A DNA stretch of 62,982 nt, the filler included, from Hausera hauseri (taxonomy: Eukaryota), in assembly GCA_046269625.1 (NCBI GenBank). It is 13 parts of 13 records of this genome, joined end to end, with 100 filler letters (N's around TTAATTAATTAA, not from the genome) between each part and the next. Parts side by side here need not be neighbours in the genome. Positions count along the whole stretch, not along the records: positions 54,581 to 58,934 come from JBJURY010620998.1; 12 more parts are not named here. One strand, 5' to 3'. The translations under genes were made by a program, and so were the position numbers. The notes under the pieces are model-generated. The model had not been told where the DNA came from, did no database searches, and worked only from the letters and a program-made list of their open reading frames with translations. The first letter of the stretch is position 1. Each line of letters opens with the position of its first letter. Positions 6,990 through 59,761 of the stretch are shown here, piece by piece.

Positions 6990-8370
6990 AGCTGGTGTTT
7001 CTCTTTGCTATGCGATTAGCCTCCCAGTACTCCTGCCTACTTTGTTCATCTCTCTGATTATCCCACTTTCTCTTAGCTGCCTTCTTCTTCTGGATGCTCT
7101 CCTGGACTTCCTCATTCCACCACCAACTGTCCTTGTCTTCTTTCCTCTGACCGGAAGAAACGCCCAACACCTTTTTGCCAGTTTCTCTCACTACCTTAGC
7201 TGTACTTTCCCAGTCCTCAGGTAACTCTTCGCTGCCACCCAGGGCCTGTTGCAATTCTTCACTGAACTGCCTGCAACAATCTTCCTTCTTCAGCTTCCAC
7301 CATTTAATCTTTGGCTCTGTCTTCACTCTCTTCCTCCTCTTTGTTTCTAATCTCATTTTACAGACTACCATCCTATGCTGCCTTGCTACACTCTCCCCTG
7401 GCACCACTTTACAATCTCCAATCTCTTTTAGGTGGCATCTCCTGCTAAGGATATAATCCACCTGTGTGCACCTTCCTCCACTCTTGTATGTCACCCTGTG
7501 TTCCTCACTCTTCTGAAAATATGTGTTCACCACAGCCATTTCCATTCTCTTTGCAAAATCTACAACCATCTGTCCTTCTGTATTCCTGTCTTTCACACCA
7601 TACCTACCCATCACTTCTTCATCTCCTCTGTTCCCTTCACCAACATGACCATTGAAGTCTGCTCCAATCACCAATCTCTCCTCTCTGGGGACACCTTCTA
7701 CCACTTCATCCAGCTTACTCCAAAATTCCTCTTTCTCCTCTAACTGACAACCAACCTGTGGTGCATACGCACTGACAACATTCAAAATGACACCATCAAC
7801 TTCCATCTTCAAGCTCATGATCCTGTCTGACACTCTCTTCACATCCAGAACACTTTTAACAAACTGTTCCTTTAAGATGACCCCTACTCCATTTCTCTTA
7901 CTATCTACACCATGGTAGAACAGTTTGAATCCACCTCCAATGTTCCTGGCCTTGCTTCCTTTCCATCTGGTCTCCTGAACACACAAAATATCTACCTTCC
8001 TTCTCTCCATCATGTCTGCCAGCTCTCTGCCTTTACCAGTCATTGTCCCTACATTCAGGGTCCCTACTCTAACCTCCACACTCCTGCCTTTCCTTCTCTC
8101 TCGCTGCCTTCTAACACGTCTTCCTCCTCTCCTCCTCGATGGTCTTCGACCAACAGTAGCCCAATTTCCACCAGTACCCTGCTGGTCAACAGCACCGGAG
8201 GCGGTCGTTGTTAACCCGGGCCTCTACCGATCCGGTAAGAAAGTCATAAATTTTGTGATCCGCATGTTTGTTTTGGCACAAGTTTTACGCCGGATGCTCT
8301 TCCTGACACAACCCTCACCATTTATCCAGGCTTGGGACCGGCACAAGAAGTACACAAAAGAGCACCCCCA
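6990..8370 (-). mobile_element. RTE LINE 5' part: 5' UTR and AP-endonuclease ORF (6976-8079), 3'-truncated; teleost Rex3/Expander-like
   Basis: GTLNVGT, ILCVQETRW, GVGV, SAYAPQ, GADFNGHVG, QVDYIL and HRMVV are APE motifs. Confidence 0.93.
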
Positions 8371-19345: not shown

Positions 19346-19719
19346 TGTTGCATAAAGTTAATAAACAGACATCCATGCTGTTTGTTCGTAGCATCATGAT
19401 ATGCATCGGTCAAGTAGGCTCGGTNNNNNNNNNNNNNNNNNNNNNNNNNNNNNNNNNNNNNNNNNNNNTTAATTAATTAANNNNNNNNNNNNNNNNNNNN
19501 NNNNNNNNNNNNNNNNNNNNNNNNCTTCTATCTCAAAGTTGTGGCGATGCCTTGTACATGGAAAAGGCGGGAAAATTCTTGATAAAGAAGGGAAACCAAG
19601 AAAAAGCACAAAGTCAAATTCAAAGTAATTTTATGTTTGGATATTTTTCTACATTTACGGCGCATTCGATAAACCGTATAGCTAAGGGACCGAGCGTGCC
19701 CGCCCCCGCTGTACTGCAT

Positions 19720-19947
19720 CCCTTTTCTCTTCTTACTTTTTCCCATAATAAACATGTGTACACATTGGAGGTTGCATACAAACATACGGCACACATCCTT
19801 TATTCTGCATTGCCTTCCTTTTTCGGCTTCTCCGATTTTTATTACATGCACAATGGCCTAACTCTGTTACCTTCCGACTCTCTGTCATCTTTTGCATCCG
19901 GGAAACATTCAATGATTCTCACAATCAATTTTCGTATCCGTGGTGGA
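19720..19947 (+). CDS. Ubiquitin-like domain (76 aa, ends RIRGG) fused in frame upstream of Gag
   Basis: VYTLEVAYKHT resembles Ub TITLEVEPSDT; FYYMHNGLTL..SLSSF resembles LIFAGKQLE..TLSDY; LTINFRIRGG resembles LHLVLRLRGG. Homologous segment at 56445-56663. Confidence 0.78.
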
Positions 19948-20994
19948 TCAGACCCTGACCCTTCCGCAGAAAATTTAACCAAAGCCAAACCTTGTCGTCG
20001 TCCTGCCGACCTCACATCAACTACATCTCCAAATCTCCATTACACATATTTTTTTCTTGATAAAACCAATTCGAGTCGCACTTGGTTACAGTTCAATTTG
20101 CAGTGGCTTAAAGCCAATCATATCACAGACTCCTTTTTGCGGGTGAACAGTTTGCTGCTACTACGTTCAGCCAATATCAAGCAGCAAATCAACAATCTTG
20201 CTGACATACTTACTTCTTCAGGCCCATATGATATGCTTTATGAATCAGTTCTGCATATCACCGACCCTTCCATTGACAGCATAATTCAGAAATATTTTAA
20301 TGAACACGCCATAGGTAATCAAAAACCGTTGGATTTCCTTAAAACTGCAATTTTGCAATTGAGCTCTTTGGGCCTCATTCCCGTAAACAATGCCGATCTT
20401 CTTCGTCGGTATTTTCTTTCATCCTTGCCAACCTTCATCAGAGCGCTGCTCACGGTAGTAGAAAAAAAGCCCTTGAAAAGATCGTCTTATTGGCAGAAAA
20501 AAGTTTTGACATTTTGCAATCTAATAGTTCAAAGTCAGTAGCTGCACTGACCGCTCACACGCCATCACACAGATAACACTATTTGCACAACAACTGCATA
20601 TGATGGAGAAGCAATTCGACACACTCCAATAGGCAATATCTGCGATCACGGCCAAACTCAGTGACTTATCCATGCCTCGAGGAAACAAAAACCGTGTTTC
20701 GCATAATCGTAGCTTTTCCAGGCATTATTCGCGGTCTAAATCTCGAGATGGTAGAATAATTTGCTTCTATCACAATAAATTCGGTATAGAAGCAAGAAAG
20801 TGTGTTTTACGTTGTCGATTCTACGATGAACGTTATGTAGTAGACAACCCGATCTGCATCTATCACACAAAGTATCAGTCCATGGCTAGGTCGTGTGTGC
20901 CAGGATGCAAATATTATAAAAAGAATTCTAGTTTTTCTCCATCTTCTTCGCCTTCTCGTACTCATAATTCCTCTTCTTTTTCCCAACAATCCTC

Positions 20995-21045
20995 AAAAAA
21001 CTAATAATGCCACCAGATGCCACGGCACATTCTGGTATAGGCAAT
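20995..21045 (+). promoter_or_regulatory. gag/pol -1 ribosomal frameshift site (A_AAA_AAC followed by stop and a GC-rich structure)
   Basis: tcA AAA AAC TAA is in the gag frame and the protease ORF is in the -1 frame. The same heptamer occurs at 46529-46535 (+) and 55361-55367 (-). Confidence 0.85.
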
Positions 21046-24000
21046 ATCGCTCAAATTTCTGGCCGCTTCGACACCGCCTCTGCAGTCTTTCTGTTGAAAG
21101 CTAAAATGTTATTTGTAGACATCTCACACATAGATTTCCTCATTGATTCAGGAGCTGCCTTTTTACTTCTTCCTTCGTCCTTTGCTCCTACATCTAACAC
21201 AGTTTACTTTCCTTCACTATTCACTGCCTGTGGTCAATCTTTGAACATTCTAGGTACCACTAAACTGTCTTTCACATTCTCCAACCTTCGAGGGAAATTC
21301 TCCTGAATATTTCACATAGCCAACATTAGATTGTCCAAAATAGGCTCCGATTTCCTGGCTGCATACGATTTGTTAGTCGACCGTAAGCATAGATGCCTTC
21401 TGCGTAAAAACTGTTGCAAATACCAACAAATTTTCACCAAAGGACCAGTCGGACACCTTGTCTTTCTCTGTTCATTCAAATGTCAATTTGACATGCTCCT
21501 CATCGGCTTATAAAAACACGCTTAATAATTCATCAATATTTTTAATTTCATCAAGTGAGAACAAATCAATCTTGAAACAATCGATTGAACCCAATATCAT
21601 TAATAAAATGTTCTGTGATTTTACATCAATTACAGCCACCGACTCTTCCACCAATATGCCCTCATCATTCTTATAGATGGAATCCAATATTAAATCCTTC
21701 ATCAAAACTTCTTGTTTCCGCATTCTCAAGAAGGACGTCAATTTCAAGCTGCACTCCACAACTTTTCACCACATAGTCACCGAACACTAAAGACCTATTA
21801 GACAAAAGGTCAGACCACTGTCACCTTGCATGCGAAAAGCTGTTGAATCAGAGTTCAATGAACTCAAAAAGGCTGGGATAATTCTACAGTCCAAATCACC
21901 ATGGGATTTACCATTGCATGTAGTAACAAAGAAAGATGGCAATTACAGACAATGTGGTGACTATCGTCAGTAAATAATCTAACAGTCCTGGATGCTTACC
22001 CTTTACCTATCATAATGACATTCTGCACAGCCTTACCAACATTAATACGTACTCTACAATTGACTTGCATAAAGCATATTATCAAATTCCTGTTGCACAG
22101 GATAATATTCCAAAAACTGCTACTATTACTCCATTTGGCCTCTACGAATATATCTTTATGCCAATTGGTTTACGAAGTGCTTCTCCAACTTTGCAACGAC
22201 ACATTGATACCGTATTCTCAGGCCTTGATTTCGCTCATTCATATACTGATAACATATTAGTTGCCTCTACGTCTGTCAAGCAACATCAAGAACACTTTCG
22301 TATTATCTTTCACAGACTATATTATAGAAATTTGCAAGTCAACTTGTAAAAATGTCATTTCTTTCAAAAATGTGTTAATTTCCTAGGTCACGTCATCACT
22401 CCTCACGGCCGCTCTCTACAACCTGATCGACTACAACAATTGAAGAACATAACTCGACCAATGAATACCACGGACATGAGAAGTTTCTTAGGCACACTCC
22501 ACTTCATCCACAAATACGTACCTCATTGTTCTGAGCTCACAGCACCTTTTGCACACTTGTCATCCGGAAACAAGAGGCAGTTGATTCACTGGACTCTTGA
22601 TTTAGTCACCAAGTTTGATCACTTACGCGATGGCCTAAAACCGTCGAAATACTGGCCTATCCAAAGCCCAACGCAGATCTTATACTTACCACAAATGCCT
22701 CGACCACAGCCACCGGTGCAGTACTACACCAAATTTCCAACGGTGTAGATGAACCCTTAGAATTTTACTCTAGGAAGCTTACACAACACGAAAGCCGCTA
22801 TTCAACATTTGACTGTGAGTTACTCGCCATAGTTCTGGCAGTAAAACGTTTTAAACATCTACTTCTCTCTCGTCCATTTGTGATTCAAAATGATCACAAG
22901 CCTCCTGCAAATCATGTCGTTAAAACAGCTATCATATCTCAAGCACAGGTAATTTGGTAGCAGATTTTCTATCGAAGTCGGTTGGTTCCTTCACTGTTGA
23001 GCCGATTTTTTCATCCGAAGTATTAAAGGCAAATCTACCGTCTTCTGACTTTCTTAGTTCTTTCAAATCCTTTGAGATCATCAATGGCATTGCATATGAT
23101 ACGTCGAATATCGGTAATAAAAAGATCATTCTAGCACCACTTTTACAAAAGTCAGCTTTCGTTCATACGCATTCACTACATCATCCAGGTTCGAAAGCAA
23201 CCTTTCGCCTGTTACAATGTCATGTAGTTTGGCCATCAATGCGTAAAGATGTACAGGGCTGGGTGAAAGAATGCATATGCTGTCAAAATTACAAAATCAA
23301 CAAACACCTTAAACCGCCGCTGTACAATTTACTTGCACATCACGCTTTCATACAGTTCATCTTGATCTCATTGGCCCTTTACGTGCTTATAAGGGATATC
23401 AGTATATCCTTACTATGATGGATCGTGCTTCGCGCTGGCCTGAAGCCGTTCCTCTTCGTTCAACAAACACTGATTCAGTAGCTGGTGCGTTTATAAAAAT
23501 CTAGATCAGTCGTTTTGGTTCACTACGTTACACAATAACTGATCACGGTCCACAATTTGAATCAAAACTATTCAAATTGATACTAAAACTCTTAGGGATA
23601 TCCCATTTCTACACAACTCCACATCATCCTGAAGCAAATGGCCTTCTTGAAAGGTTCCATCGAACAATAAAAATTTCCTTAAAAATCTTGGCTGACACTC
23701 ATCCCAATTGGACGTCCTTTCTAACATTTGTTCTCCTAGAGGGGCAAAACACAACATCGACCACTACTGGGTGTGTTCCAGACGAGGCACTCTTTGGAAC
23801 TCCAATTCGGGCCTTGTTTAAACTTTCTGACTTCGACGACAACCCCACAGACAAAAATATTCGTGCATCACAATTTCACTTCGTCGAGGTTAGCTCAGAT
23901 TCATTCTGTAGCCTCTTTAACAACAATAAATCTTATATTCCGAAGGATTTATACTCCGCCAAGTTTGTATGGCTGAAGAATCAATTGCCTTCTGGTTTTA

Positions 24001-24462
24001 GACCTCAATATGTCGGCCCATACAAACTGCTGAATCTTTCAAATCACACAACAACCTTCTTTTGCCAAGATAAACCTAACAACGTTCATATTTCGAATTT
24101 GAAGCCCGCTTCCTTCATTGACGACATTCCAGATGCCAATTCTACCTCAAACTCAAACTCAGCTAGCACTCCTATCGATTTTTTAAATGATTTTACATCA
24201 CCTCCAATTGCATCGTCCTTTTTGCTTCACTCATCTTCGCTATCATCCCCATTACAAAATATTACTCAACAGCCCAACACAAATCCATCGAGTAAGGTAC
24301 GCAGAGTGACATTCAGTACGTATATCAGAAAAACGTTCTTTGATGGTACACAACGCCTGACCTATACCAGGCACCGAACTTTGTTCCTTTTGCTACCCAT
24401 CGTTTTCATCCTTCTTATTTTCATCATTGTTTTTTGCCTTTAGATCGTTTCTTTTCTGCCAC

Positions 24463-24500
24463 AAGAGGGCGGTGATGTGGTGCCGCGGTTGCGGGTACAG
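24463..24500 (+). mobile_element. Polypurine tract and start of the 3' LTR of E1
   Basis: AAGAGGGCGGTGA followed by TGTGGTGCCGCGGTT. Confidence 0.8.
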
Positions 24501-25039
24501 CTCTCTTCCTCAGATTCGAAAATTCAACTTCAAGCGGAAATATCAATCTCTTTGACGTGTCTCTCTCATTTTATAAAGCATATTTCACCATCCATTATTA
24601 TTATTCATGGATAACAATTTCGACGATTCATAGGCAGAAGAATGATGTGATGATATGCATCAATAACGAGTTATTTCAACACGTGATTAGTAGCGGGTTC
24701 ACAGTCTGAAGATTTCAAGTGTAACAAATCATGCAGCTGACCAGCAAAACATTAGGTGAACAACAGACACCTGTTCAACAATAGAACAGTTATTTTGTCA
24801 AGGGTGACATATTCTGTACAGTCAGTTTTGAACTTCGTATTTCACCGTTCTAAATAAATGGTGACTTCTAGTCTCAAAGACGCCAATAACAACGCATAAA
24901 AATAATCCAGAAAACTCAATAATGACGAAAATGAATCGATATAGAGTCTGATAATGAAGATTATTATCAGTAATTTTTCAAAATTTGTAATATCTAAATA
25001 CTAATTAAAATCTCTGCTTAAATTATAACAATTGCAAAG

Positions 25040-25156
25040 ATGTAAGGAATTTTATGGAAAAGGACAAATTATTATAGCAGTTGGCAACCGAGATGGTTTA
25101 TTTTGCCAGATGGCATATTTTCGTATTATCGGAGTGAAGAAAAAGCAATAGTTAGG
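25040..25156 (+). pseudogene. FAPP/OSBP-type PH domain N-terminal fragment
   Basis: M*GILWKRTNYYSSWQPRWFILPDGIFSYYRSEE versus FAPP [30 protein letters not shown]; codon 2 is a stop. Confidence 0.8.
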
Positions 25157-25399
25157 TTTATATTCAAATTATCTTATTCATGCTGGCCCTAAAGACTATA
25201 TTATAATGTACATAGATTTTATATATAGACGTTTTGATTTTGGATAAATACGTTGTTAAAATTTTAAATTGAATTTAAAAAATAGACATGTGTTTGTCAG
25301 TCTGTTTCTTGTGGATTCATTTATTTTATTTTGTGGATTTATTTATCTCCTTTTATTCGTTAATCATTAGATTTATATTATACTAGCGTAATGACAGAC

Positions 25400-26210
25400 T
25401 TAAAGCTATTATCTCTAAAGACTGCAAAGAACTTACGGTACATATTACCAACCTAAAGCCCGCCTTCTTCGTCAATGACACTGCACCAATCGACACGTCA
25501 ACCCCTTTGCTCACTCCTACGCTTCCTCCTCTTCCTATTTCTATCGCTACACCTGTTCCACCTCCTCTTTTTGCTCCTAGTTCTGCTTCATCATCTTCCG
25601 CGCCTTCTCCTTCTGTTCCTATCTGTCTTCTATATCTATCACTACCTCTGTTTCATCTTCTACGTCTACTATTTTGCCTAATACATTTCCAATTTCCACG
25701 CCAACTTTCGTCTTTTCTCCTTCATCCGCTACTTCACCTTTTGTCACTCCTTCGTCTTCCAACACTTTCTTGAATACCTTTAACCATCCGTCTCCAACAA
25801 TCTTTCTCCCTCCTTGACCGTTTTCTTCTCTTCATTCTGACTCGTCTATGCACGACACAACACTAACAACAAAATCTTGCAATTTTTTCCCAACTTCAAC
25901 CTCTGCAAACAAACACATCTCATACAGACAAAACACGCGTAGTCACATTTAGCATGTATAGCAGGGACAAATCAATAGAAGGCTCCCAACGTCTTGTTCA
26001 AACTAAGACCAACTGACACAGGCACTTTTCGTTTATCGATTTTTTCTTTCCGTCTATTTTGATCTTTATAGTATTCACTTTTCCACGGGGGGGGGTTGAT
26101 GTGGTGCCCACGGTGGCCGGTGCACTTTGGCCTATTTAGTCTGGCGCGTTCGGGCGTCCGTTGCCGCCGCATCGGGCCCATAGTCGGGCCCGATCTTCCG
26201 CCTCGAAAAT
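25400..26210 (+). mobile_element. Second Gypsy 3' end: integrase tail, PPT and LTR head
   Basis: HITNLKPAFFVND, an S/P-rich linker, KTRVVTFSMY...TKTN*, a G-run PPT at 26087-26099 and TGTGGTGCC at 26100. Confidence 0.85.
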
Positions 26211-26947
26211 TTCTATATCTAAAGTTTTATGTATTTCTCATATTGAATTTCAAAAGTATTAAATTTGTCACTAATTTCAAACAAGTGAAACTTCAGGCAA
26301 TTTGCTTTTTACGTAGTGGGCAAAGATTATTCAGGTACAAATTTGTTCTACGTATTTCAGAACAATTATACAAATTTCTGTTAGTGGATGTCAATGTGCT
26401 GAAATTGTGTTTCGAGCATACATCAGATGTACCCGTTTTGGAATCGCTAGTTTTCAAATTGTTTAGACTAAACGAAACTTTCCTTGAAGACAATTTTGAC
26501 AAAATATTCTACTGCGGATCTCTGCAGTTAACTGTCGTAACATCATATTGTTGTAAAACTCTACTGTCATCTGAGAAACACATCGCTTTTAATATTTTTC
26601 ACGTTTTGGACATGCTTATGCAAAGTATAAAAGATCACGATTTGGAAACAATCGAACATTTCACTGATACCTCTTTGGATATCATTAAAAATAAAATCCT
26701 GATCTAAGAAAGGTTTTGCTAAAAATTATTTAGGCTATTTTTATATCTAAGCCTGTTTTTCAAGAAGCGATAGTATGGCTAAAGATTGTATCAACGNNNN
26801 NNNNNNNNNNNNNNNNNNNNNNNNNNNNNNNNNNNNNNNNTTAATTAATTAANNNNNNNNNNNNNNNNNNNNNNNNNNNNNNNNNNNNNNNNNNNNATAA
26901 TTATACTACTACCAATCATAATCTACTGCTCTAAGATAAGACGTAGA

Positions 26948-28714
26948 ATGCGCAAGACCCAAAATATTATACAGCAATTAAAATTATTAAGGGAAGGACC
27001 CCAAGATGAGGATTTAATTGATGATACAAGCGCACCCCCTCAAGCTGATAAGCTATCAAACTTTAAACGGCAATCTAAACCGTCAATGAACGTTGCACTA
27101 TATATGTGCACACATATGAAAAATAAGGCTGCAAATTTCTTAGCGACCTACAAAAATAACTATGATAAATTTCAGGCTGCAAAGCTTTATGCAACCTATC
27201 ATAAAATTATTTTCAAAAAATTTCCATGGTTATTATTGATGTGTTTTCTTTTAGTCCAAGAAGGTGCCGAAACAGTAGAGAGGGCCAAGTCCTTCTACTA
27301 CAACATATCCTCCAATTTGGAATCGACTCAACAAAAAGACTATATATACTACGCCAAAGCCTCACTCATACCGAACAACCTAAAGGGACATCTCGTGACA
27401 CAGAGAGCAGGATTGATTATAAAATTACCCAACACAACAACTACACTATCAGATTTGATAGACCTATCTACAAAAACAACATCTGTTTATTTATCAGTCA
27501 TCAAGGCTAGTTTGCAGCTAAAAAGTAGAAGTCACCGAAACAATATGACGGACAAGATGGACATTACACCTTTTTCCACTATTCGAATCGACCAACGTCT
27601 ATATAAAAATGCAACTATCACTTTGCGAACCTTCGGAGGACCTAGTCCTATAATATACATTGAGGTTACCCGACGAGAAACTATACCTCGCCCAGAGTAT
27701 GACACACCAATTTATAACCTACCTCTACCCCATAAAACACAATTGGAAATCGGATGTTCTTTTTCCAGAGTACCCACAGTTCCTCGAAATAAAGTCGTAG
27801 TTTTGTCTACTAATGTTGCCTATCTAATGAAAAGCAACCAGTCAGCAGCGACTCTCACAGAAATTACAATCATGGACTTGGATGGAAACATCATCTTTGA
27901 TCAGCTTGTTGTCCCTCGAGATCGTGTTGACAATTACAACACTCAAATAACAGGAATCAGAGAATCAGACCTAGTCGGCCAAGCCGACCAATATCAGATT
28001 TGGCCTACAATCCGATACCAATTAGTAGGAAAAATGATCGTTGGACTGACCGTATTCAACACTAACTTTCAAATCGCCCTTTTCAATATGGATCAAATAA
28101 TGGGCATTCGCGACTTATTTTATAATGAATCTATTAACCCAAACCAAATATTAACTCAAAAACAAATCTTCCTCAAATACAATAATATTAAGTATCCCAT
28201 GAGAACCAAAGAAAAGGCCTTCGTTTTACTAAAAATGTACAATACCCTTGAAGAATACCACAATGAAAAACCAGGTGTAAAGTCTACACCAATTATACGT
28301 CAAGTTCCAAATCAACTTCTTGAATCACCTATTCCTTGTCTCAGTAACATTTCGTCGGAATCTATGGATATTGATCCTCAATCAACAGACATTATAGCTA
28401 CCTCATCATTAGAACTCCCTTCTAATTTTGATAAACTTTCTAACACAGATGATCAACCAGAAGAACCAATTCCTTCTACATCAACTTTGTTTATTATGCC
28501 CGATAAAACGATAACGACAGATCCAAAGAGGAAAAGGAAGAAGATTCCGAAAGAAGAAACGATTACCCTGAAACTCAGATTTAAAAAAAGAGGCCAATGG
28601 CGTTGCTACGAATCTTCTTCCTATCGGTTAGAAAATGGCACCCTTGAAACCTACCCAGCAATGCTGCGGACAGCATTGTCTGAGGAGGGGGTTGTTGACA
28701 AAATTGACAATTGA
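26948..28714 (+). CDS. Intronless 588-aa protein with a REX4/ISG20-like DEDDh exonuclease fold lacking the catalytic residues
   Basis: KVVVLSTNV...LTEITIMDLDGNIIFDQLVVPRDRVDNYNTQITGIRESDL...LVGKMIVGL...IRDL aligns by eye to REX4/ISG20. ExoI DxE reads SxN and VGH reads VGL. Basic PKRKRKK NLS-like motif. Confidence 0.75.
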   Translation: MRKTQNIIQQLKLLREGPQDEDLIDDTSAPPQADKLSNFKRQSKPSMNVALYMCTHMKNKAANFLATYKNNYDKFQAAKLYATYHKIIFKKFPWLLLMCFLLVQEGAETVERAKSFYYNISSNLESTQQKDYIYYAKASLIPNNLKGHLVTQRAGLIIKLPNTTTTLSDLIDLSTKTTSVYLSVIKASLQLKSRSHRNNMTDKMDITPFSTIRIDQRLYKNATITLRTFGGPSPIIYIEVTRRETIPRPEYDTPIYNLPLPHKTQLEIGCSFSRVPTVPRNKVVVLSTNVAYLMKSNQSAATLTEITIMDLDGNIIFDQLVVPRDRVDNYNTQITGIRESDLVGQADQYQIWPTIRYQLVGKMIVGLTVFNTNFQIALFNMDQIMGIRDLFYNESINPNQILTQKQIFLKYNNIKYPMRTKEKAFVLLKMYNTLEEYHNEKPGVKSTPIIRQVPNQLLESPIPCLSNISSESMDIDPQSTDIIATSSLELPSNFDKLSNTDDQPEEPIPSTSTLFIMPDKTITTDPKRKRKKIPKEETITLKLRFKKRGQWRCYESSSYRLENGTLETYPAMLRTALSEEGVVDKIDN

Positions 28715-34957: not shown

Positions 34958-37571
34958 TAGTCAAAAATCCATTCGTTGATATTTTGTATCGTACAAAAAA
35001 TTCGAATGGTTCTGTAGTTAACTTGATGATTTTGGAGAATGATGAACACTTTCACTATGTTGCTGTACCCAATCTAAATCGGCTGTTGAACGTTCGATCT
35101 AAAAGCATATGAATTCAATGTAAACATTGGTGTAAAAATGTTTGCATGGTTTTAGGCTTGATACTGCTTATGTTAAGCATTTACCAATGTGCAATTCTTC
35201 TGCCAAGTTTATGAATTTATACAAAATGCCAGAAAATAAGTTCTATGAGTTTAAAAACTGGTCAAAATCTATTAGTCTTCCTTTTGTTGTATATGCCGAC
35301 TTTGAATCTGTTCTTTGTCCTGATGAAAAGGTTAAGCATATTCATTTACCTGCTGAAGCCGGTCTTTAGCTAATTTCATCAACAAGTATTGAATACAGTT
35401 TGTTGGTAAAAATGCTATAGTCAAACAGTGAAAAACGTAGTTTTTCCTTTCTATCAGAATGCCAAAAAGCCCATGATTCCTTTAACATCTGATGAATGGT
35501 CTTGTTTCAAAAATGCTATAGAATGTTACCCCTGTCATGAAACCGCTTCGCAATTTGTTAGAGATCACTGCCATGTTTCAGGTAAATTCTTAGGTCCTGC
35601 ATGCAATAAATGTAACTTAGCTCGTAAGATTAGATATAATTTGCATGTTATTTTCCATAGTTTTCGTGGATATGATCTCCATCATATCTTGAAACATGCA
35701 TTGAGTAAATTCAAAAGATGAAACTTGAACGTGATTCCACAAACAACAGAGAAATTTTTAACCATGCGGGCAAATATACAATGTTCATGTAAAAAGTCTG
35801 TCTCCGATTTCTAGACTCGTTGCAATTTTTGCCGGAATCACTTAAAACTTTGGCTTCAAAATTAGATAACTACCCATTAACTGAAACGGCTTTTCCTTCT
35901 GACATCATTAAGGGAAAAGGAACTTTTTCATATACTGCAGCCAAATCTTTCAATGACTTGCAGTTAATTAAGGACTTACCGGCAAAATGGGATGGTGTTA
36001 GTGACAGTGATTATGAGGAAACACAACTGGTTTGGTCAAAATACAGTTGTAGCTCACTTTTGGATTACATGTTGGTATGTGATGCTCGACGTCTACTTGT
36101 TAGGCGATGGCTTTAAACGGTTTAGACAGGAGGTTAAGTTGCAGGATGGTTTAGAAGCCGTTAACTTTGTCTCAATTCCAGGTTTAAGCTGGGCAACAGC
36201 ACTGAAAACCAGTCCTTGTAAGATTGAGCTTATCCAGGATCATGAGATGTATCAGTTCTTTCAGTCAGGTATTCGCGGTGGCATGACTTTTGTAAATAAG
36301 CATGGGATTGTCTCTAATGAAAGCACGAGTATTTTGTATATAGACGTAAATAATTTATATGGCTGGGCTTTATCACAACCACTACCATTTGCGAATTTGA
36401 CTTGGATTTACGATGAGGACGTCTTGGCCAGTCTGATCGAACAATTACCTTACATTGACTGTGTTAAGTAAAAAAGAGGCTTAGTCTTTAAAGTTGACTT
36501 GAGCATTCCAGCAGACAAACATGATAAGTTAGACCAACTGCCTTTAGCCCCAATCAACAAATGTCCACGCTGTTCAAAAGTAAATAAATTGTTAATGACA
36601 CATGAGCGTAAGTCCAACTATGTTGTTTACTATCGGCTCTTACAGTTGGACATCGAGTTAGGTGCTGTAGTTGAGAATGTGCATCGGGCCGTTGAGCTTG
36701 ACCAAGGCTATGTCTTTAAGTATTACATTGATCTAAATACTGCTAAGAGGGCTGCAGCGAAAAATCATTTTGAAAAAGACTTCTTTAAGCTCAAGAACTA
36801 TAGCTTATATGGTAAAACTGTCGAAAATCTCTTAAAAGGTCAAACTGGAGACTACGTAACAATGCTAATAAGATTGCTACATATGCTAGTAAGGCCCAGT
36901 TTAAAGAGAGTATTATAATAGACGATGATCTTGTTGCTGGTCTCCTTGAAATAGATATGGTCACCTTAAATAGACCCTCATACATCGGCCAGGCTGTACT
37001 TGATTTTTCCAAGTTGAAAATTTATGAACTCAATTACATAGAGTTAGAGTTATATAGGCATCAGTTGAATTGTGAACTAAATGTTGTTGCTGGTGACACT
37101 GACGGTTTCTTTCTTGAGTGTCGTGGTGTAAATTTGCGAATACAGCTCTTAGTGACAATGATAGCAAACGAGCAGTTGGACACTTCTAACTGTGATGCTA
37201 AAGACCCTCTTTATTCTACTTGTGTTGCATCTGTAATTGGGAAATTTAAGGATGAAAGTAAGGGTAGTGCTGAATATCAAGAAGCTATTTTCCTAAAACC
37301 GAAATCATAAGCCCTTAAAACCCAAATCAAACCAGTGCTCATATGCAAGGGTATCAATCTGAAACAAACGGATTTGCACTTTGATAACTACTTGCAAGCA
37401 TATAAAAATGGATGTGGGACAATTGTTGATCAAGAACGGATTGGGACAAAGAATCATCAACTGATGACGATCAGTACCAAAAAGAAAGCTTTGGACCCTT
37501 TTGATGACAAACGACACTGGATATCGAAAAACAAAAGTGTCGAATATGGACATTATTGTACAAATGTGTAA
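34958..37571 (+). pseudogene. Polinton/Maverick protein-primed family B DNA polymerase, fragmented
   Basis: VVYADFES, RDHCHVSGKFLGPACNKCNL, FHSFRGYD, GIRGG, YIDVNNLYGWALSQPLP, FFKLKNYSLYGKTVENL, GDTDG, GKFKDE and FDDKR, spread over several frames. Confidence 0.95.
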
Positions 37572-37949
37572 ATAATTGATTGCTTGTATGTGTTATATTA
37601 ATAAATATTTTGTAAAGACTTCTTTGTATTCTGTTTTGTCATAGCGTACATTTAAATTTTGACAAATTTTGAGAAATTTTATTCACAAGTGACACTTACA
37701 TAGGGTTATTTATATCAACTTTGCAAAATTTAAACAAAGTGGGGGTGGGAATAGTGAAACGCCGACTACGCCAGAAATTCCTTTGTCTACCGAATACTGC
37801 TCTCCCATTTGTCAGTTTTCCTCACCCCGATGACGTGTCCTCTTCTCATTGGCCTGTTTTCCAATTTCCAATGACGTGTTCTCCTCTCATTGGCTTTCTT
37901 CCTTCCCTGAGGGGGGGAGGTGGCATCATATGCTCCCATCTATTTACTA

Positions 37950-38710
37950 GTGGGTATCATGGTAATTTAATTATGAAAATACTGTACAAAACCATCAGCA
38001 AGTTCTACCCAAAAAATGAGTGCAAAGGAGACACAGAAAATATAAAAAATGAAAATTCTTCCAAAATAAGTCCATCAAAGAATTTACTTAATGAAAACAT
38101 TAGGTCCACTTATATATTGAAATTACCATATTCAGATAGCTCTCATATACTTAAAAACAGTATTAATAACTTGATCTCGGATAATTTTATTGATTTAAAA
38201 ATAAGATTCAAAGCAAGAAAAATTATTAATTATTTGAGCAACAAATCGCGAACCTCCAAAGAAATCTTAGCTAACTTGATCTATCAATTTAATTGTCATG
38301 AAGATAATTCTCCATATATAGGAGAGACCTCGCGTCATCTTTACACACTAGGTGGTGAACATTTAAATGGACAAGGTACGATATATGTTTATGACCATAT
38401 TAAGTCATGCAGTAACTGCATTTTGTTAAATGGTAAACAAATAATTTCAAAATTTAAAATTCTAAAATCTAATTTAAGTCATGAAAATGGAAGACAAATT
38501 ACAGATTCTATTTGTATTAAGAAGTTTACTCCAACAATTAATAAATAGACAGATTTTGTGAAGTCCGTTTTTCTATTTAATGATTAAATTACAATTCATT
38601 TACAAGTATTTCACGGATTCGTTCTGCTACAGTTTGACATTGCAATTTATTAGAGAAAAGCGATAGATAAGTTGTTTCTACAACATATTATTTTACTGAT
38701 GATGATGGGT
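37950..38710 (+). mobile_element. Penelope-like element 3' part, GIY-YIG endonuclease
   Basis: LKLPY...NLIYQFNC..YIGETSRHLYT...EH...HIKSC..C..FKIL...I....PTINK. Confidence 0.85.
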
Positions 38711-45536: not shown

Positions 45537-48500
45537 AACTACACCCGCCGACATTCCTACTATTAGCGTACCTCTAAATTCACCTCTACCTCAGTCATCT
45601 ACCGTAAACCTCCCTTGCGTAGAATTCTTTGCTGAGAAGCAACATTCCAGCCGAACATGGCTGGACATCCATGCGGCTTGGTTAAAGTCAAATAATATCG
45701 TCGACTCTGCTTCAAGCAAACAGCTTGTTTATACTTTTGCCTTCCAACATTAAGTGGCAGCTTTCCAACTTGTCGGAAATCTTTCAAAGCAGTGACCCAT
45801 ACAAGACACTCTTTAACTCGATCTTAAAAACCACGGAACCATCTTTGGATAATATTATTCACAAATATTTCAACGAAAACACCAAAGGCACATTAAAACC
45901 CTCAGAATTTCTTCAAACTTCTCTTGGTGTTAATCAAGCAAACAACGTCGATTTATTACTCAGATATTTTCTGCATTCTTTACCTAGAGACATACGTGCA
46001 CTGTTGACAATAGTAGAGGATACATCGTCACGACAAAAACTAGCACAACTGGCTGATAAAAGCCATAAGATATTACATGAATATACAGCCCCAGTAGTCG
46101 CTGCTACGCTTCAAACATTAACAACACAACAGATTAACGACATATCACATTTTAACTGTCAAACAAATTCTTTACGTACCGAAAATGCCAATATACACTA
46201 AGCAATTTTAATACTCAAGTCTAAAACCGAAGCTCTGGCCATGCCTAGACGGAGTCGTTTTGATGCAAACCATAGCAGCACTTCTTCTCAAAGTTCGAGA
46301 CATGCGAAGTCGCCTACACGATCAATGGTGTGTTACCACCACATCAAATTTAAAGATAACGCCACTAGATGTTGCTTGGTTTGTAGATTTTATGCCCCAT
46401 TTCAGACGATCCGATAGTCTGCATACATAATAATAAGTTTAACTTTAAAGCACATAGGTTGCACCTTCTTTAATCGGTCCATTACATCACACCCTACTTC
46501 TTCCAATAACTTAAACCATGTGCCTCCAAAAAAACGTATAAAGCCCCAGATATTTCAGCACGTACGGCACAGGCAAACTTCTTCATTCTGATGGCCGTAC
46601 CTACGCCGTTTTCACATTAAAAGCCTCCTTAACATCCAAACCCAATCAATTAATCAACTTTTTTATTGATTCAGGGGCCGCTGTCTCTTTGTTATTACGG
46701 TCCATTAAAACAGCAGCCATCTCACCATGTAATACCAAGTTGTACATAGCTAACGGCCAAGCTTTACGTGTATTCGGCACGTCCAAGATTTCATTTACAT
46801 TACCACCATTCTCCGACATTTTCAATTGGACTTTCATCATCGCCGACACGCAATCCCCAATACTTGGCTCTTTCTACGACATTCTTGTTGACTGTAGACA
46901 ATGTCCGATCATTAAAAGCAGTTCAAGAAAGCCAACCTCTACAAGTAACCCACCGGTCACGCAGCCTATCTCGCCTATAAAATCGATATTAGAAAAACCC
47001 TCAGCCAACGTCAATAAAAAACTTATTAATACATATATAAGTAGTCCTACGTTTTTCTTAAAGTCCGATAATAAAGGAACAAAAAGCGTTAACAAGAACG
47101 ATTTAGGCGGCCCGATTTCTACCGTTTCTCGCACTAAATCCGATCAGTCCCCTGCAATAGCAACAACAGCCCTTACTACGCTTAGCCAAGAAATGCAACA
47201 ATATTTAACCGTCTTGTTTTCATACAATAAAAAAAGATACAGCATTTCGACCAGCTGACACAGCGTTTCATTATATAATCACAGAAAATCCTAGGCTCAT
47301 TAGGCAAAAACTCCACCCACTTTCACCACGTCGTCGACAGGCAGTCCAAGCGGAATTCTCTGCACTTGAGCAAGCTGGAATAATAAAACGCTTAAAATCA
47401 CCGTGGGTATCACCACTCCATGTCGTCCCAAAAAAGGAAGGCACATTCCGTCCATGAGGCGATTATCGCCAACTTAATAACGTCACAACCATGGATGCTT
47501 ATCCTCTACCTCTGATTAAGGATATATTACATTCTTTACACAAGACCACAATTTATTCGACCATCGATCTTGAAAAAGCCTAGCACCAAATACCGGTAGC
47601 ACTTGAAGACATCCAAAAAACGGCCATAATAACACTTTTGGTCTTTTTGAATATGCATTCATGCCGTTCGGTTTGAAGAACGCAGCACAGAATTTTCAAC
47701 GTCACACTGATTCAGTCCTTTCAGGCTTGCCATTTGGATATCCATACATCGATGATATACTAATTGCATCGGCATCGCCCAAACAATACGAAGAACGTCT
47801 CCCACTAGTTTTCCAACGCTTACACAGCTACAATTTGCAAGTGAACTCTTCTAAGTGTTCCGTCATTCAGAAAAAGTTCAATTTCCTCGGCCACGTCATC
47901 ACGCCTGACGGTCACAGTCCACAGCCTGATAGAATTCATGAGTTACGAAACATTGAACTACCAAAAATCACTACTGAAATGCGTAGTTTCCTTGGAACTT
48001 TAGATTTTGTACATAAATACGTCCCACACTGTAGCCAGTTAACTGCCCCTTTCGCTCACCTAGGAGAAGAGCCGAAAAAAAACTAATATGTTGGACGCCA
48101 CGTCTGTAAACCAGTTTGATAAACTCCACGACAAGCTTAAAACAGTTGAAATCTTAGCTTACCCAAAACCCGATGCAGACCTCATCTTAACAACCGACGC
48201 ATCAACGACAACAGTAGGAGCGGTTCTTTATTAAATATCTCAAGGTATAAATGAGCAGTTAAATTCTTTTCACGTAAGCTTCAGCCACAAGGACGCCGTT
48301 ATTCCACCTTCGACAAAGACCTCCTGACCATCGTATTAGCTCTTAAACATTTTTCACACTTACTGATCGCTCTTTCCTTCACCATTCAAAGGACAACAAA
48401 CCCCTCGTTCACGTAATGAACATGGAACAACCATCACTTCGACAAGAAAGCCATATCTCGTACCTGTCAACATTCAACTTTAAAATTTGCCATATTTCTG

Positions 48501-49990
48501 GCACAGACAATTTAATAGCCGACTTCTTATCACGCTCAGTTAATGCTATTAGTGTCACATGAATATTCTCTAAGGAACAATTAGTCCAAAATTCCCCTTC
48601 CGCTGAAACTCTTAAACAGTACAAATCCGTCCAAATCATCAATGGAGTAGCCATGGACACGTCGACACCTAGGCAACATTGCCAATCTTGGAACCTTCTC
48701 TACAACATTCCGCCTACTCAGACGTCACGTAAATTAAGCATAGATGAGGTCTGACGTACAAAGTCGGGTTAGACAATGCGTAGTTTACCAAAAGTTCAAA
48801 ATAGCTAAGCACCTGAAACCACCATTATTTCATTTCACATGTACGTCCCGTTTTGAATCAGTTCACCTAGATATCGTTAATCTATTACCTTCAGATAACG
48901 GCCACCAATTCGCTTTAGCAATGATGGACCGCGCATCTCGTTAGTCTGAAACTGTTCCTTTGCGTTCCATCATTATAGATTCAATAGCCGATGCATTCAT
49001 AAGAATTTGGATTAGTAAGTGCGGTTTACCCCGCTATATAATTACGGACCAAGGTTCTCAATTTGAATCGAATCTATTCAAGTCTTCATATATACACATA
49101 TATACACACAACTCCATATCATTCCCAGTCGAACGGCTTATTGGAACGTTTTCACCACATTCTCAAAGTCTCGCTAAAAATTTTAGCTAAAACCCATACG
49201 AATTGGACTACCATCCTTCCTTTCGTATTACTTGGGTGGCGCAACACACCGTCTACTACCACCGGTTGCGCACCAGCTGAAGCACTTTTCGGTACAACAA
49301 TTCGTGTACTTTTTGAACTAACTGATTTAGATAACACGCCGACTGTCGAAATCATTAGGTCTGCACAAAAGCATTTTGTTTAGTTAAGTCAGAACTCCTT
49401 CTGTAAAATAATACATGGTGACAAAACATACTTACCTGACACAATTTTTAACGCAAAATTCGTGTGGTTAAAAAATCCTTCACCTTCCGGATTCCAACCA
49501 AACTATTTAGGACCCTTTGAAGTTCTCAATATTACTTCACACACGGTTACAATACTCAAAAACGACAAAGAACAAAACGTGCACATATCTAACGTAAAAC
49601 CTACATTTTTCGTTAATGGCACACAGGATCCTTCGATTGATTCTACACAAACCATTCTTGACCTCTTCAATTCTTCTTCCACTCTACCAGCACGATAACT
49701 TGTTACTCTAAAATCCGCATCAACTCAAAAAACTATACCAAATGACATGCCGACCAATTCTCAACCTGCTGACAGAGCGAATCAAAATATAAATTACTCC
49801 CAACTACCTGAGCAAAAAATCAAACACGGTAAATAAAACAAGAGTTACCTTCATCAGATATAACAGAGAACAAAATATCGATAAGGTTCAACGTATTTAT
49901 CACACAAAGACTAAATAGGTAACACGCACCGTTCTATTTTGCCTTCTTGTTTCTGTTGCACAATATTTTTGATCAGTAGTTGATGAACCG
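45537..49990 (+). mobile_element. Ty3/Gypsy CsRN1-like element (copy E2), 5'-truncated by contig start, decayed
   Basis: Gag SSRTWLDIHAAWLKSNNI; AAAAAAC; FIDSGA; MPFGLKNA; YIDD; TTDAS; ITDQGSQFES; NGLLERFH; KTRVTF tail. Confidence 0.95.
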
Positions 49991-50094
49991 ATGGGATGGT
50001 AATACATCCTGAATACTGCTCACCACCACCCAGTTTCAGAGATTCTCTGCTTTTGCCTAGCATTAATGACTTTAGTCATTTGCGGAATCATGTA

Positions 50095-50171
<77 letters not shown>
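50095..50171. repeat. (ATCT)n microsatellite
   Basis: Perfect tetramer run up to the contig end. Confidence 0.98.
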
Positions 50172-54580: not shown

Positions 54581-57500
54581 TGATGAATTGTTGTAAGCTT
54601 ACGGGTAGTTGCTGGAATATTGTGAGTGACGATGAACCACGGCTGCTGGCAGTACTTTGTGTATGTTGATTGATTGTTGGTGAGGAATCGAGTGGAGTTT
54701 GAAGTAGAATGGTCGAGTTCGGGACCTTATTTGACTAAGTGTAGTTGTTCAATAATTTTACTGAAGATACCAGATCGTGAATGTCGACATTGAGCTATGA
54801 CTGACTGTCGACGTTGTCCTTTGGAAGCTTACGATGTAAAACGTGATAGTTAAGATAATTAGTATGAGGTATAGATCGTTTCAAAATTGACTGCCTACTT
54901 GCAGTTGGCTGTGTTGTCTTCGGGGTGCTGTCTATTCCTGTGCTACAGTCTTCAGGTGTATTTGATTTCAGGCAGCGTCGGTTACAATCGACTAGCAAGT
55001 TATAGTGTGACAGAAAATCGGAGCCAAGTATTGCCGTCTGGACGTTAGCGACTGTAAACGTCCAATGAGATGGTGAGGAAAATTTTGGCAGAGTGAAAGA
55101 TAATTTTCAAGTTCCGGCAATATGAAGAGATTGACCGAAGCGGTGTATAAAGGTTTTGTTTTAAGTGAAGAATGTTGGACCGGAAAATAGTGGGAATAGT
55201 GAGATCGCTTCAACGGTATCGATGAGAAAGTCTATCGATTGAATATTAGAAGTGGAGATAACAGCTTTTAGTGTAAAGACTGCAAAAGAAATGTGTCGGC
55301 AAGAGGAATTAGGTAAATTGCCTTTGCCAGAATCTGCCGAGAATACTGGCGGTGAAATCAGTTTTTTACGATTGGTGAGATAGGACGGTTACTGTTAGAG
55401 GAACTTACACGTCCATCAGTGGTGTAGTTATTGTTATTTTTATAGTTACAGCCTGAAATACAATTCCAAACATTAGATCCAAATTTTGCGTGATAGCTGC
55501 AAACTATGTTATCTGAGTGTAGATTCGGCGAATAAAATCTACACCCTAATTTGCTTTATTATTAAATTTGTTATGGTAATAACATATAAATGACCGCGTT
55601 GGTGACGGTATTCGATTTCTGGAAAGAGAACGCGTTCGATGAGGGGAGGAACAATTCCGTCGATGTAAGGAAAGATCATTTAGTTTATCATTGATGGTGT
55701 TGATTGTGTGTTGTAGTGCCGCATTTTCGGCGCGTAAATGGTTCAGTTGGTTCTCTATAGATGTATGTCGCTGTTTGTCATATGTCGTAATTGCAACTGA
55801 TATGATGGTTTGTGATTGTATTTGTAAGACTTCGTGTGTTTTATCGGCCAATTCAGCTAGTTTATCCAAAACTGTAGAATCTTCAATAACAGGAAGTAAA
55901 GCTCTAATTTGAATGGGTAAAGCATTAGGGAAATATCGGCGAAGTAGATCCGGGTTGTGCTCCTTGATGACATCCTAGGTACGTAAGTGGGCCAACGAAG
56001 TGCGTAAGAAATCACTAGGTTTTTGTGTCCCCATTGCGTTTTCATTAAAGAAGCGTTGCATTATCTAGTCAAGTGGTGGTTCTGTCAGTTTTAATACAGC
56101 ATTGAACAATTGCGTATAAGGGTCAGTGTTGAAAGATGTCTAGTAAGTTATGGACTGGGGTCTTTATGGAGTTTGGTAGCAGGCAGAGTAGATTATGGGC
56201 CTTGGTTAGCGAGTCGGTGATGCCGTTGGATTGTAACCAAAGTTGATGGCAGTGGAGCCAAGTCTTACTAAAATTTTCATCGTCTAAAATATTCAGAGCA
56301 ATGGTAGGGTGTAATTGTAGCGTTTTTGTGAGGAGAGATACTATCGGATGAAGTAGGTGGATGGTTTGATTTGGGATAATAGAGAATGGATTTGGATTTT
56401 GTGGTCACCTTATCTGTGATGTTACTGGTTGATGAAGAAATAACACCGCCACGGATTCTAGGGTGAATGTGAATAGAGAGGTAGTAATGTGAGAACATGA
56501 TGTGTGGGAGGTCAGTTAAAATAAAACCATTGTGAGTCAAATAGAAATCGTTGAAGGCGGTGGTATCATGAATGAAGGCATATAATTGTAATGGGTCGAT
56601 ACGCCGTGTGATGTGTACGGTCTGTATTAAGTTACTATTGACAAAAATGTAGAAGGAAAACGGTGGTGATAGACGGCAAACAGGATAATGTGGTATCTCG
56701 ATGTGATCATTAGAAGCCAAGAGGGTTGTTATTTCTTTTAAGGGATCTGATCGATAATTGTGGTTTGACATCCAATCTAAAACGGCGCTCGAAATATTTC
56801 TTTGAAATCCTTTTCGAATATTGAAGTTAAAATTTCGTGGATATTGTCTTAGTCGAAAAAGTTTATTGGATGTCGAATCGTTGCTGGTGTTTATTAAATA
56901 TGCCGCGTTTAGGTTGATGCTGATAGGTATAGCCTCCGTTGATCTGCCATCAAAGTCCGTGGAATTAGAAAGGAAATCCCCATACGGCATTTGGAAACAA
57001 CTGCCCGTTGGTAGATACGAATTAACGACGGGATTATCGTCGTTCGTTTGCAACGATATGTTTGCTTTGCTGGCTGCTAACGAATTGGGTATTGCTGTTG
57101 ATGCATGGCACAGAATTTAATCCGGAATAAATCGGCTTTTGCCGGGTTTTCTGCTGGTAGTTAGAAACTGAGAATCGATGGATCCGCCAATCTCGTTCTG
57201 CAGTGATGCAACGGCATCACTGGCGGTGTTCTGGCTGCCGGAATTTAACTTGTACAGTCCGTGAGAAGAGCCAATTTGTGATGAGGGAGACAGTTGGGAC
57301 GAGGGAGATGACGTAAACATGCAGTACACAGCTGAGTCGATGGATTTCATTCATGTGAGAACGATGTCCGCCGAATGGAAATAACAGTCGGATTTGCCGA
57401 CGGTCAGATTAAATAGATTGTGTCCGCCATTTGTCACAACAACATTGTGTCTGATAAACACTACATTACAATTGGTAAATATGACTGCCGATGAAAACAC

Positions 57501-57600
57501 ATCAGCGCAACTCGCATAGGAATCTATTGGGCGCATTGCAGAGTCGAATCGAATATCCTCAACATTTGAATAATGAATTATTTCGATGTCACTGCGTCCA
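54581..57600 (-). mobile_element. Ty3/Gypsy CsRN1-like element (copy E3): long leader, Ubl, gag, frameshift, protease, start of RT linker
   Basis: SKTWLHCHQLWLQSNGITDS, DKLAELADK, CYYHNKF, CSYHAKF..CISGC, GTA AAA AAC TGA, DFLIDT. Confidence 0.9.
56445..56663 (-). CDS. Ubiquitin-like domain (73 aa, ends RIRGG) upstream of Gag in E3
   Basis: PFSFYIFVNSNLIQTVHI...FIHDTTAFNDFYLTHNGFIL...LSIHIHPRIRGG; colinear with the E1 domain and with ubiquitin (QIFVK, IQDKEG, LRLRGG). Confidence 0.78.
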
Positions 57601-58431
57601 AATACTTTTTTAATTTAAAAAATGAGTTCGTCCAAAGTTCCTTCATTTGAATCCAACTGAATCCTCTCCAAAGAAGATTCCTCATGTTCAGTTTCATTTT
57701 TGTCTGAGAAAACATTACGCGTCCACCTTATAAATTGTTTACGTCAATCTGAATTACGGAACAAAAGTATCAGTCTAGCTGTTTCAGAGCTGTGTTCATC
57801 ATCTCGGCAGTTAAGAGCGACCCATTGATTAAACGAACCAATATACATTATAAATGTGCGATCTGTTTCCAATATCATACAGATCTTAGTCACGAAACTC
57901 CGCTATCCTGTTGATCCGTCTCAAGGTCACTGTAAGATTCACACTCGCCCGGCTGTTTACATGACAACACTGAGGACCAATTGGGCAGAAGGGTATCTAC
58001 TTGAATATCAATCTGCCTCCTGCCCGACCTAAAATCGTTAGAAAAGAAAGCATTGGTTCTTGAAAATTGATAGAATCCCAAAGAAGTAAATGGGGATGCA
58101 GTTGAGAGAGATGCAGATAGTAAATTGCTGGCTGATAATTTCCTTGATGCGCTAAAGTAATCGTAAAGTCGCTCGTCCACAAAAAACGACATTTGTCTTG
58201 TTACAGCAACTGTCATGGACAGCTGAAACTCGTTGTTACTTTAACGTGTCCGTTCACAAAACAGAATTACACGTTCATTATCTGTGCTTATTCCAGTCCG
58301 TTTTGATTCAGACAATCCAGAAGCCAAATCAAGGCGCCGAATATCGTTGTAGGGCCAACACCATCTGGGTGGCACATACATGGAATATTCACCGTACCAA
58401 TCATATAATGTTATCTTTCAGATTATCGCAA

Positions 58432-58896
58432 CTACCTTGACACATTTTCCTGGTTGCGGGGATAAATCATCCAAATAACCATCATCCAATTGTATGTTAA
58501 TGAAGAAGTAAATATCAGAACAATAATATATGGTAAAGGAATCAGTACTGCTGCTGTGGTACTTGTGATAAGACAATCAGTTTGATTTGCATGGGTAATA
58601 TTGTAAGTCAATGTTTTGTAAACTGAACTATTGTAAACAATTGCCAAATAATTTTGAACTGCTTTTACTAATTGTGGTGTGTTTTGAGTGATGATTGATA
58701 TTACAACATCTCTGATATTCACTGTTAATGTTGAGTTCGATATTTGAAAATGTATATATTGAAGTATTCCGAGTCTTAATGGTTGAGTCAGACCTGATTG
58801 CCTTAACGAGCGGGAAAAATTGTTCACTTCACTTTGAGTTAGTGACTGCGTTATGGTCATGTTTGGATCTATGACGAATTGCATGGAATTGTTCAA
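58432..58896 (-). CDS. Fragment of a possible membrane protein (N-glycosylation sequons followed by a hydrophobic stretch)
   Basis: Several NxS/T sites, then AAVLIPLPYIIVLIF...WMMVIWMI; no family recognised. Confidence 0.3.
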   Translation of the reverse strand: MNNSMQFVIDPNMTITQSLTQSEVNNFSRSLRQSGLTQPLRLGILQYIHFQISNSTLTVNIRDVVISIITQNTPQLVKAVQNYLAIVYNSSVYKTLTYNITHANQTDCLITSTTAAVLIPLPYIIVLIFTSSLTYNWMMVIWMIYPRNQENVSR

Positions 58897-59761
58897 AGCA
58901 TAATATGCGTTCTTTTGGAGTATGAAGGAACAAGNNNNNNNNNNNNNNNNNNNNNNNNNNNNNNNNNNNNNNNNNNNNTTAATTAATTAANNNNNNNNNN
59001 NNNNNNNNNNNNNNNNNNNNNNNNNNNNNNNNNNGAAATTTCCAAAACAGAAATGACAAACAATAAATTAAAACTGCTGTAACACTTTGGAATAGAAAAA
59101 AAAACATTAATAATTGTTTTAAAACGCAATAAGTCCTAATAAAAGTCATTTAAAATCAAATTAGGACCAGGAAAGTTTTCTGAAACATTTACGTTTTAGA
59201 TAATGTTGGGCTATGTTGTTGTTTGATCTCCTCCCTCGCCGAGCGTCAGCTCTTCTGGATGAACCCTGATAAGGGCTGTAGTCCTAAGAAGGACTCAGGA
59301 GTAGTAGTTGCGTTGGGCATTCCTTCTGTCCAAGTGGAGTCTAGTAGGAGACCGGGGTCCTCCAGGCTTCAGTGCAATGCTTGGCCTCCTAGAAGTGATC
59401 CATTTCTGAACTGGGGACTATAAGAATCCTTCCAACGTTGGCCAGAATTGCTTCTGTTTCCAGAACTCACTACGAGTAAGTGTTGAATGGTCTTGGCCAG
59501 TATGTTACTGGCCCCGACTAATGTTCGGATCTAAACATAACTCTGGCACTCTCAGTTTTTGGCGGGTGTGCGCCTGGTGAGGGTAGGTGGGTACATTTTG
59601 CGATGTAGCGGTAAATGACCAATGCAGCTAACGAGCCGCTCCCACCGTCAGAAGCGAACATCAAATTTGGGAGTACGTATGACCGTAAACGTCGCTTAAC
59701 GTGTTATTTCCTTACTGCTGCATCACCTGATCTTTTAATTTCTGTACAGCAATGATGGAGT

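Follow-up and report, generated by a model that had tools for sequence, protein, structure and literature searches.

The question raised by this locus is why a decayed retrotransposon gag should be preceded by a Ubl domain ending in GG, and what the long in-frame sequence ahead of that domain is. The window, meaning the whole stretch of 62,982 nucleotides analysed here, consists of 13 short contigs with N-spacers between them, and holds three related element copies. E1 (19525-26796, plus strand) and E2 (45537-50171, starting within gag) are decayed Ty3/gypsy-like copies with RT and integrase Pfam matches in both. The copy under study, E3, lies on the minus strand of the contig at 54581-58934, matches gag and PR of E1 and E2, and terminates with its contig at 54581, ahead of RT; gag and protease are alignable among all three copies. 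Judged by the type of element, the host is probably an animal. We read this region as probably the 5' portion of a CsRn1-like Ty3/gypsy copy, now dead, with the layout leader-Ubl-GG-Gag, in which host deubiquitinases would cut after the GG. Describing the E3 leader as an "accessory protein" is doubtful.

The E3 leader was delimited in the Ubl frame at 56700..57902 (minus strand), where 401 codons contain only four stops (57744-57746, 57615-57617, 57351-57353 and 57117-57119), against 21 and 29 stops in the other two frames. In 5000 dinucleotide shuffles of 57902-56700, the mean was 19.2 stops (P ~0.0002 for the best of three frames). The span considered in the original prediction (57536-56700) gave P 0.0012, and the two short ORFs alone (57117-57614) gave only P 0.07. 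The ORFs at 57351-57536 (ATG), 57117-57350 (ATG) and 56277-57053 (TTG start) were recovered on the minus strand as predicted, in one frame with a single stop between each, and the frame is stop-poor beyond the span they cover. A single decayed ORF with about 300 aa ahead of the Ubl had been proposed; the in-frame leader holds, the length does not, being at least 400 codons. The 140 codons adjoining the E3 Ubl are open straight into it. Similarity between E3 and E1 starts only at 56693/19690, which bears out the claim that their leaders are unlike. At 57348-57353 (minus strand), the upstream ORF ends in a stop with the ATG of the next ORF immediately behind it, perhaps by chance or perhaps as a stop-restart site.

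Two more long frames extend up to the contig edge. The first, at 57893..58576 (minus strand; 52+58+116 codons, 2 internal stops), is stop-poor and offset from the Ubl frame, gave no significant family match, and probably continues the decayed leader. The second, at 58435..58932 (minus strand; 166 codons, open at the contig edge), carries 8 N-glycosylation sequons and one hydrophobic segment, and had no match in Pfam, PDB or a homologue search; in the ESM Atlas its best score was 0.93, to unnamed eukaryotic clusters, with prominin and Tweety as minority Pfam leads of low recognition value. This ORF may be a fragment of a host gene for a membrane protein, and may also form the far end of the E3 leader. 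With both frames counted, the E3 leader may exceed 700 codons.

On the other side of the GG, a linker, the Gag capsid region and a broken CHCC knuckle were located at 55540..56444 (minus strand) by tblastn to E1 and E2. The Ubl frame is not in frame with the capsid region, with frameshifts near 56285 and 56125, and the CHCC motif starts and is then interrupted by a stop; since gag is split over three frames after the GG, the E3 copy is dead. A decayed aspartic-protease region follows at 54795..55410 (minus strand; tblastn to E1 20995-21399, 44%), placed as in the intact relative L003.

The diverged E3 Ubl occupies 56445..56666 (minus strand) and ends in RIRGG (56459-56445), with the GG at 56450-56445 and V as the next residue. 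Its counterpart in E1 lies at about 19717-19947 within a Ubl-GG/Gag region at 19525..20541 (plus strand), likewise ends in RIRGG, and is preceded by ~55-65 codons in a frame that is open at the contig edge, 19525. Over the 88 aa ending in RIRGG the two are 32% identical, and neither alone had a Pfam match. An HMM was built from the Ubls of 28 relatives, with rows trimmed at their own GG and thus biased toward that motif, and returned E1 and E3 as the top two of 1132 window ORFs; the E3 Ubl scored E 3.6e-9, and 2.8e-5 after removing the three closest relatives. A model of the E3 Ubl from a 30-row alignment reached pLDDT 74, and gave no Foldseek match at E<=0.001. VIA-align returned Z 3.9-5.1, with ~30 of 50 rows being ubiquitin-fold by title. 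These rows all score Z 3.9-4.8, below the best match, which has Z 5.1 and is not a Ubl. By way of the relatives' HMM, and thus indirectly, the E3 Ubl appears homologous to ubiquitin.

Relatives were collected by phmmer with E1 as the query, which gave 41 proteins, of which 40 were kept after P0012, an unrelated repeat protein, was removed. A further protein, P0003, has a bacterial-looking N-terminus (PF19089) fused to a family Gag half; it is probably an assembly chimera and was not counted. Locus searches yielded nothing in viral contigs and nothing in the first metagenome scan, and the sole GTDB locus match, L005, was spurious. Eight of the 40 relatives start at or inside Gag, and 32 have preceding sequence. 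All 32 carry xxGG a short way ahead of the capsid region of Gag, recognised by pattern in 25 and by reading in 7, so that Ub/Ubl-GG directly ahead of Gag is family-wide. P0011, one of the eight, has LLGG just upstream in its DNA (locus L004), where a truncated Ubl lies behind AT-rich sequence.

DUF7041 is carried by relatives in the Gag region, and L003 encodes gag and then an intact 1128-aa Pol with PR-RT-RH-IN, a gene order by which the family can be placed in Ty3/gypsy (Metaviridae). An A6C run was found at the gag-pol overlap of all three loci (L001 4034-4040, L003 2380-2386, L004 1286-1292), and is likely a -1 frameshift site. A PPT and a TGTGG start follow pol in both E1 and L003. On the E1 contig, the integrase tail, PPT and TGTGGTG start are duplicated (24300-24500 and 25387-26120, plus strand; starts at 24476 and 26100), which suggests nested or tandem related copies. 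At the E1 3' end, a 202-codon open frame without a Pfam match runs from the PPT/LTR-start motif (26099-26707, plus strand) and may be cargo within an LTR.

Within Ty3/gypsy, the CsRn1 clade (CsRn1, PwRn1, AgCR) is described with a CHCC Gag knuckle as its signature and a tRNA-Trp PBS (PMC2582038). The present family resembles that clade in having the CX2HX9CX3C (CHCC) knuckle in 33 of 40 relatives and CCHC in none, and in the gag, PR-RT-RH-IN order of L003 (PMC2582038). It differs in that the knuckle is usually doubled (by eye), and in that Ub/Ubl-GG and a long variable leader precede Gag, whereas ubiquitin does not appear in the main text of the clade description (PMC2582038). The PBS may differ as well, being tRNA-Trp in CsRn1 (PMC2582038), while PBS-like peptides in 11 of 32 relatives instead fit a tRNA-Leu PBS. 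The family is thus called CsRn1-like and is not filed as a CsRn1 member, an assignment set by knuckle and gene order.

Relatives also carry leaders. At least 90 residues precede the Ubl in 19 of the 32, at least 250 in 10, and fewer than 90 in 13, counted on cluster representatives that may favour long proteins and with the DNA, from four loci, checked for 3 of the 40 relatives only. In L001, a single 1303-codon frame runs from the leader to the end of Gag, with protease next in another frame, and the 853 leader codons contain 0 stops against 37 and 49 in the other frames; L003 has 349 open codons before the Ubl. Gene-prediction artefacts were ruled out by DNA for the long leaders of P0034 and P0032, and are unlikely for P0033, which has 1323 aa on a 4274-bp contig. 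Between P0033 and P0034, identity is 91% along the 450 aa from the first Ubl strand to the end of Gag, while their leaders (873 and 822 aa) gave no significant alignment, the unrelated leaders of this pair bearing out the term "swappable" of the original prediction. Among 18 leaders compared, similarity was found in two pairs only, in both cases in the Ubl-proximal part. This pattern in the aligned proteins shows leaders exchanged at the N-terminal edge of the Ubl, so that close relatives carry long in-frame leaders that differ from one another.

Seven leaders contain pieces of host genes, truncated in each case and from unrelated parents. A mosaic of DIS3L and CNOT1, the latter contributing half a domain, is present in P0004 and also in P0044; the others are an H2A piece (P0025), a 5'-nucleotidase piece (P0031), a STAG HEAT piece (P0034), an LRRC47 piece (P0030), a 39-aa Hsp90 piece (P0022) and a 36-aa Arp8 piece (P0021, E 0.001). 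The pieces are intron-free inside the element, as seen in the relatives and, for L001, in DNA. For 12 of the 19 long leaders no host match was obtained, PDB searches having covered five relatives only. Single-gene pieces may instead stem from in-frame insertion of the element into host exons, an origin that leaves the two-gene mosaic unexplained.

Peptides resembling a PBS translated in any of the three frames were found ahead of the GG in 11 of the 32 relatives and behind it in none, with patterns chosen post hoc, the sequences already being in view; they presumably correspond to a tRNA-Leu PBS. Since these peptides lie within the leader frame, many of the ORFs begin ahead of the PBS. The original prediction had taken a PBS within the leader to mean that the leader is untranslated, which is contradicted by these 11 predicted ORFs running through PBS-like sequence. 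Three relatives have their host pieces ahead of the PBS-like site, and one has them behind it.

These observations can be assembled into a mechanism. Host pieces would be acquired when the reverse transcriptase switches template to a host mRNA. The leader would stay open since ribosomes begin within it, in many cases ahead of the PBS, and have to arrive at Gag, and not through any need for the leader product. USP/UCH-type cleavage after the GG would then discard the leader, and Gag would gain a fixed, stable N-terminus regardless of what precedes it. More tentatively, the lineage as a whole may be a natural "ubiquitin fusion" system, with repeated capture of host mRNA including start codons, swapping of the 5' module at the Ubl edge, an occasional fresh ubiquitin, and Gag released by host deubiquitinases.

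That leaders of 250-880 aa remain open, and that the same DIS3L+CNOT1 mosaic is kept in P0004 and P0044 on two contigs, could also be explained if the leader were a functional, selected accessory protein that the cleavage at the GG sets free, such as a membrane protein or a host-mimicking suppressor. The far-upstream E3 ORF has sequons and a hydrophobic segment, and several of the pieces belong to RNA-decay or chromatin genes. We consider this reading unlikely, as the Hsp90, Arp8 and CNOT1 pieces are all partial, leaders in close relatives are unrelated, and the likeness among the 18 leaders is confined to the two Ubl-proximal pairs. The original prediction of a [variable accessory protein]-Ubl-GG/Gag architecture thus stands for the variable leader, which extends to the whole family, and not for the accessory protein, only truncated and unrelated host pieces having been found, and those in relatives.

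For the E3 leader itself, no host-gene piece was found by homologue, Pfam, PDB-sequence or ESM Atlas comparison. A word-based search (lengths 297-947 only) found no homologue, there was no Pfam match and no match among PDB sequences, where the best hit, an antibody light chain at E 0.08, was rejected, and local BLAST against the fetched relative proteins gave matches over the Ubl only. The ESM Atlas returned only ubiquitin leads for 56280-57116, all sub-0.9, and a single-sequence AlphaFold model of the 229-aa leader-Ubl had pLDDT 34. No convincing PBS or LTR end was located in the E3 leader, no paired LTR on any contig of the window, and no tRNA or Rfam match. PBS candidates at 58363, 57429 and 56774 are a poor fit to tRNA ends and were set aside.

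Other copies of E3 were sought by comparing contigs of run X1, which contains the E3 contig and may be its source sample, with that contig at 80% likeness, a comparison in which depth is no copy number. At the listed sites, a differing letter is common to 25-90 contigs in gag, protease and Ubl, and to 2-9 in the leader. Every bin is covered, which suggests that the E3 leader belongs to a small subfamily. Among the differences listed, X1 copies differ from E3 at five break points (near 56125, 56284 and 57893, at 58241-58249, and within the stop 57744-57746), as would be expected if those five breaks are private to the E3 copy; at the two gag frameshift sites, the listed difference is present in only 10-14% of X1 depth. 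Over the N-terminal edge of the Ubl (near 56700-56770), X1 depth drops by more than an order of magnitude, from ~1900 to ~100, and this drop, together with the E3 leader being unlike that of any relative and with no PBS or LTR found, could mean that an unconnected decayed gene or repeat happens to adjoin the element in frame. Such a chance junction is improbable, given that the frame enters the Ubl with no LTR-like break, that the leader is multi-copy with one X1 contig joining 56699 to 57033, and that the leader-Ubl-Gag layout is the rule in relatives.

Cleavage after the GG is suggested by the manner in which the Ubl has diverged. The tail (R/K)-(L/I)-x-GG has R/K at P5 in 26 of 32 relatives and L/I at P4 in 31 of 32, and its GG is invariant in 30 of 30 alignment rows, while the Ubl body drifts, with a median pair identity of 16% against 31% for Gag. 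Immediately after it stands one of S, M, N, G, A, T, D, V and Q. Under the N-end rule and the Pro rule, destabilising residues and Pro matter at the residue after the GG; Pro or R/K/H/F/L/W/Y/I was found there in 0 of 32 relatives, which are not independent, against a linker background of 32%. A conserved tail, a drifting body and this choice of residue are the pattern of a cleavage signal as read from the alignment, and the conserved tail and following residue fit the analogy with pestiviruses made in the original prediction. It is improbable that the Ubl remains attached to Gag and serves in its folding, targeting or degradation, with the GG a relic. Although most Ubls are far from ubiquitin and the E3 fold match is weak, so that deubiquitinases may fail to recognise them, the motif at the tail persists while the body drifts, and a capsid would be unlikely to assemble with an uncut 800-aa leader.

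PF00240 matches of the relatives range from E about 1e-22 (P0037, P0040) down to weak. P0037 and P0040 have near-true ubiquitin among relatives with diverged Ubls, to which they are 59-69% identical in Gag and 21-23% in the Ubl, suggesting that host ubiquitin was re-captured; faster drift in the other relatives is the alternative.

Among known systems, captured ubiquitin in the polyprotein of the cytopathogenic pestivirus BVDV CP Rit is described as a signal for processing by ubiquitin C-terminal hydrolases of the cell, whose cut gives the next protein its authentic N-terminus, with flanking host sequence carried along (PMC8310069). The retrotransposon family shares with these insertions an internal ubiquitin moiety before the next protein, with cleavage here only inferred from sequence; pestiviral insertions are sporadic, of true ubiquitin and in an RNA virus, whereas the present Ubl is fixed lineage-wide, mostly diverged, and placed before the capsid protein of a retrotransposon (PMC8310069). 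In LTR-mediated retroposition, pieces of host mRNA, sometimes from at least two genes, are captured by template switching, often in frame (Tan et al. 2016; PMC5131818). Host pieces in an LTR element, including a two-gene mosaic, are common to both, whereas in retroposition the chimera is a retrocopy with discontinuous element sequence on either side and the pieces here lie in frame ahead of an intact Gag with Ubl-GG between (PMC5131818). The layout may thus work like pestiviral ubiquitin insertions combined with LTR-mediated capture. Passages of PMC2836005 deal with OTU/Ulp1 in Ginger transposons. No description of a leader-Ubl-GG/Gag architecture was found among the publications listed in literature searches, Repbase, GyDB and subscription journals being outside their scope.

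The Ub-GG/protein precursors Ub-eS31 and Ub-eL40 are also similar, and the family Ubl profile, which includes two near-ubiquitin rows, matches Ub-ribosomal fusions in PDB; ubiquitin is N-terminal in these, with no leader, whereas it is internal here and follows a variable one. Retroelement Gag normally has a fixed start codon and is matured by the element's own protease. If the proposed mechanism is true, N-terminal maturation would be left to host deubiquitinases, leaving the lineage free to vary its 5' end and to take up host sequence in frame without loss of autonomy, with chimeric proteins made in bulk. On the more tentative reading it would amount to a standing exon-shuffling machine, and the leader-Ubl proteins set free might affect host complexes for RNA decay and chromatin. 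The family would also supply a natural set of diverged cleavage tails, and it calls for care in annotation, as such ORFs resemble host genes fused to Gag. This significance rests on the family more than on the decayed E3 copy.

Several other features were noted in the window. At 37673-38548 (plus strand), a Penelope/GIY-YIG-like C-terminus was recognised by eye, without a Pfam match; its frame has an SLRGG motif further upstream, which may be a ubiquitin-like tail in a different kind of element. A 605-codon open frame at 26897-28714 (plus strand) has a DEDDh-exonuclease-like region by eye and no Pfam match, broken DNA polymerase B-like frames at 35968-37310 (plus strand) are Polinton-like by eye, and a 415-codon frame at 6976-8223 (minus strand) resembles, by eye, the endonuclease of an RTE-type non-LTR element. 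The entire contig at 30959-34857 is an A-rich 8/12-base satellite.
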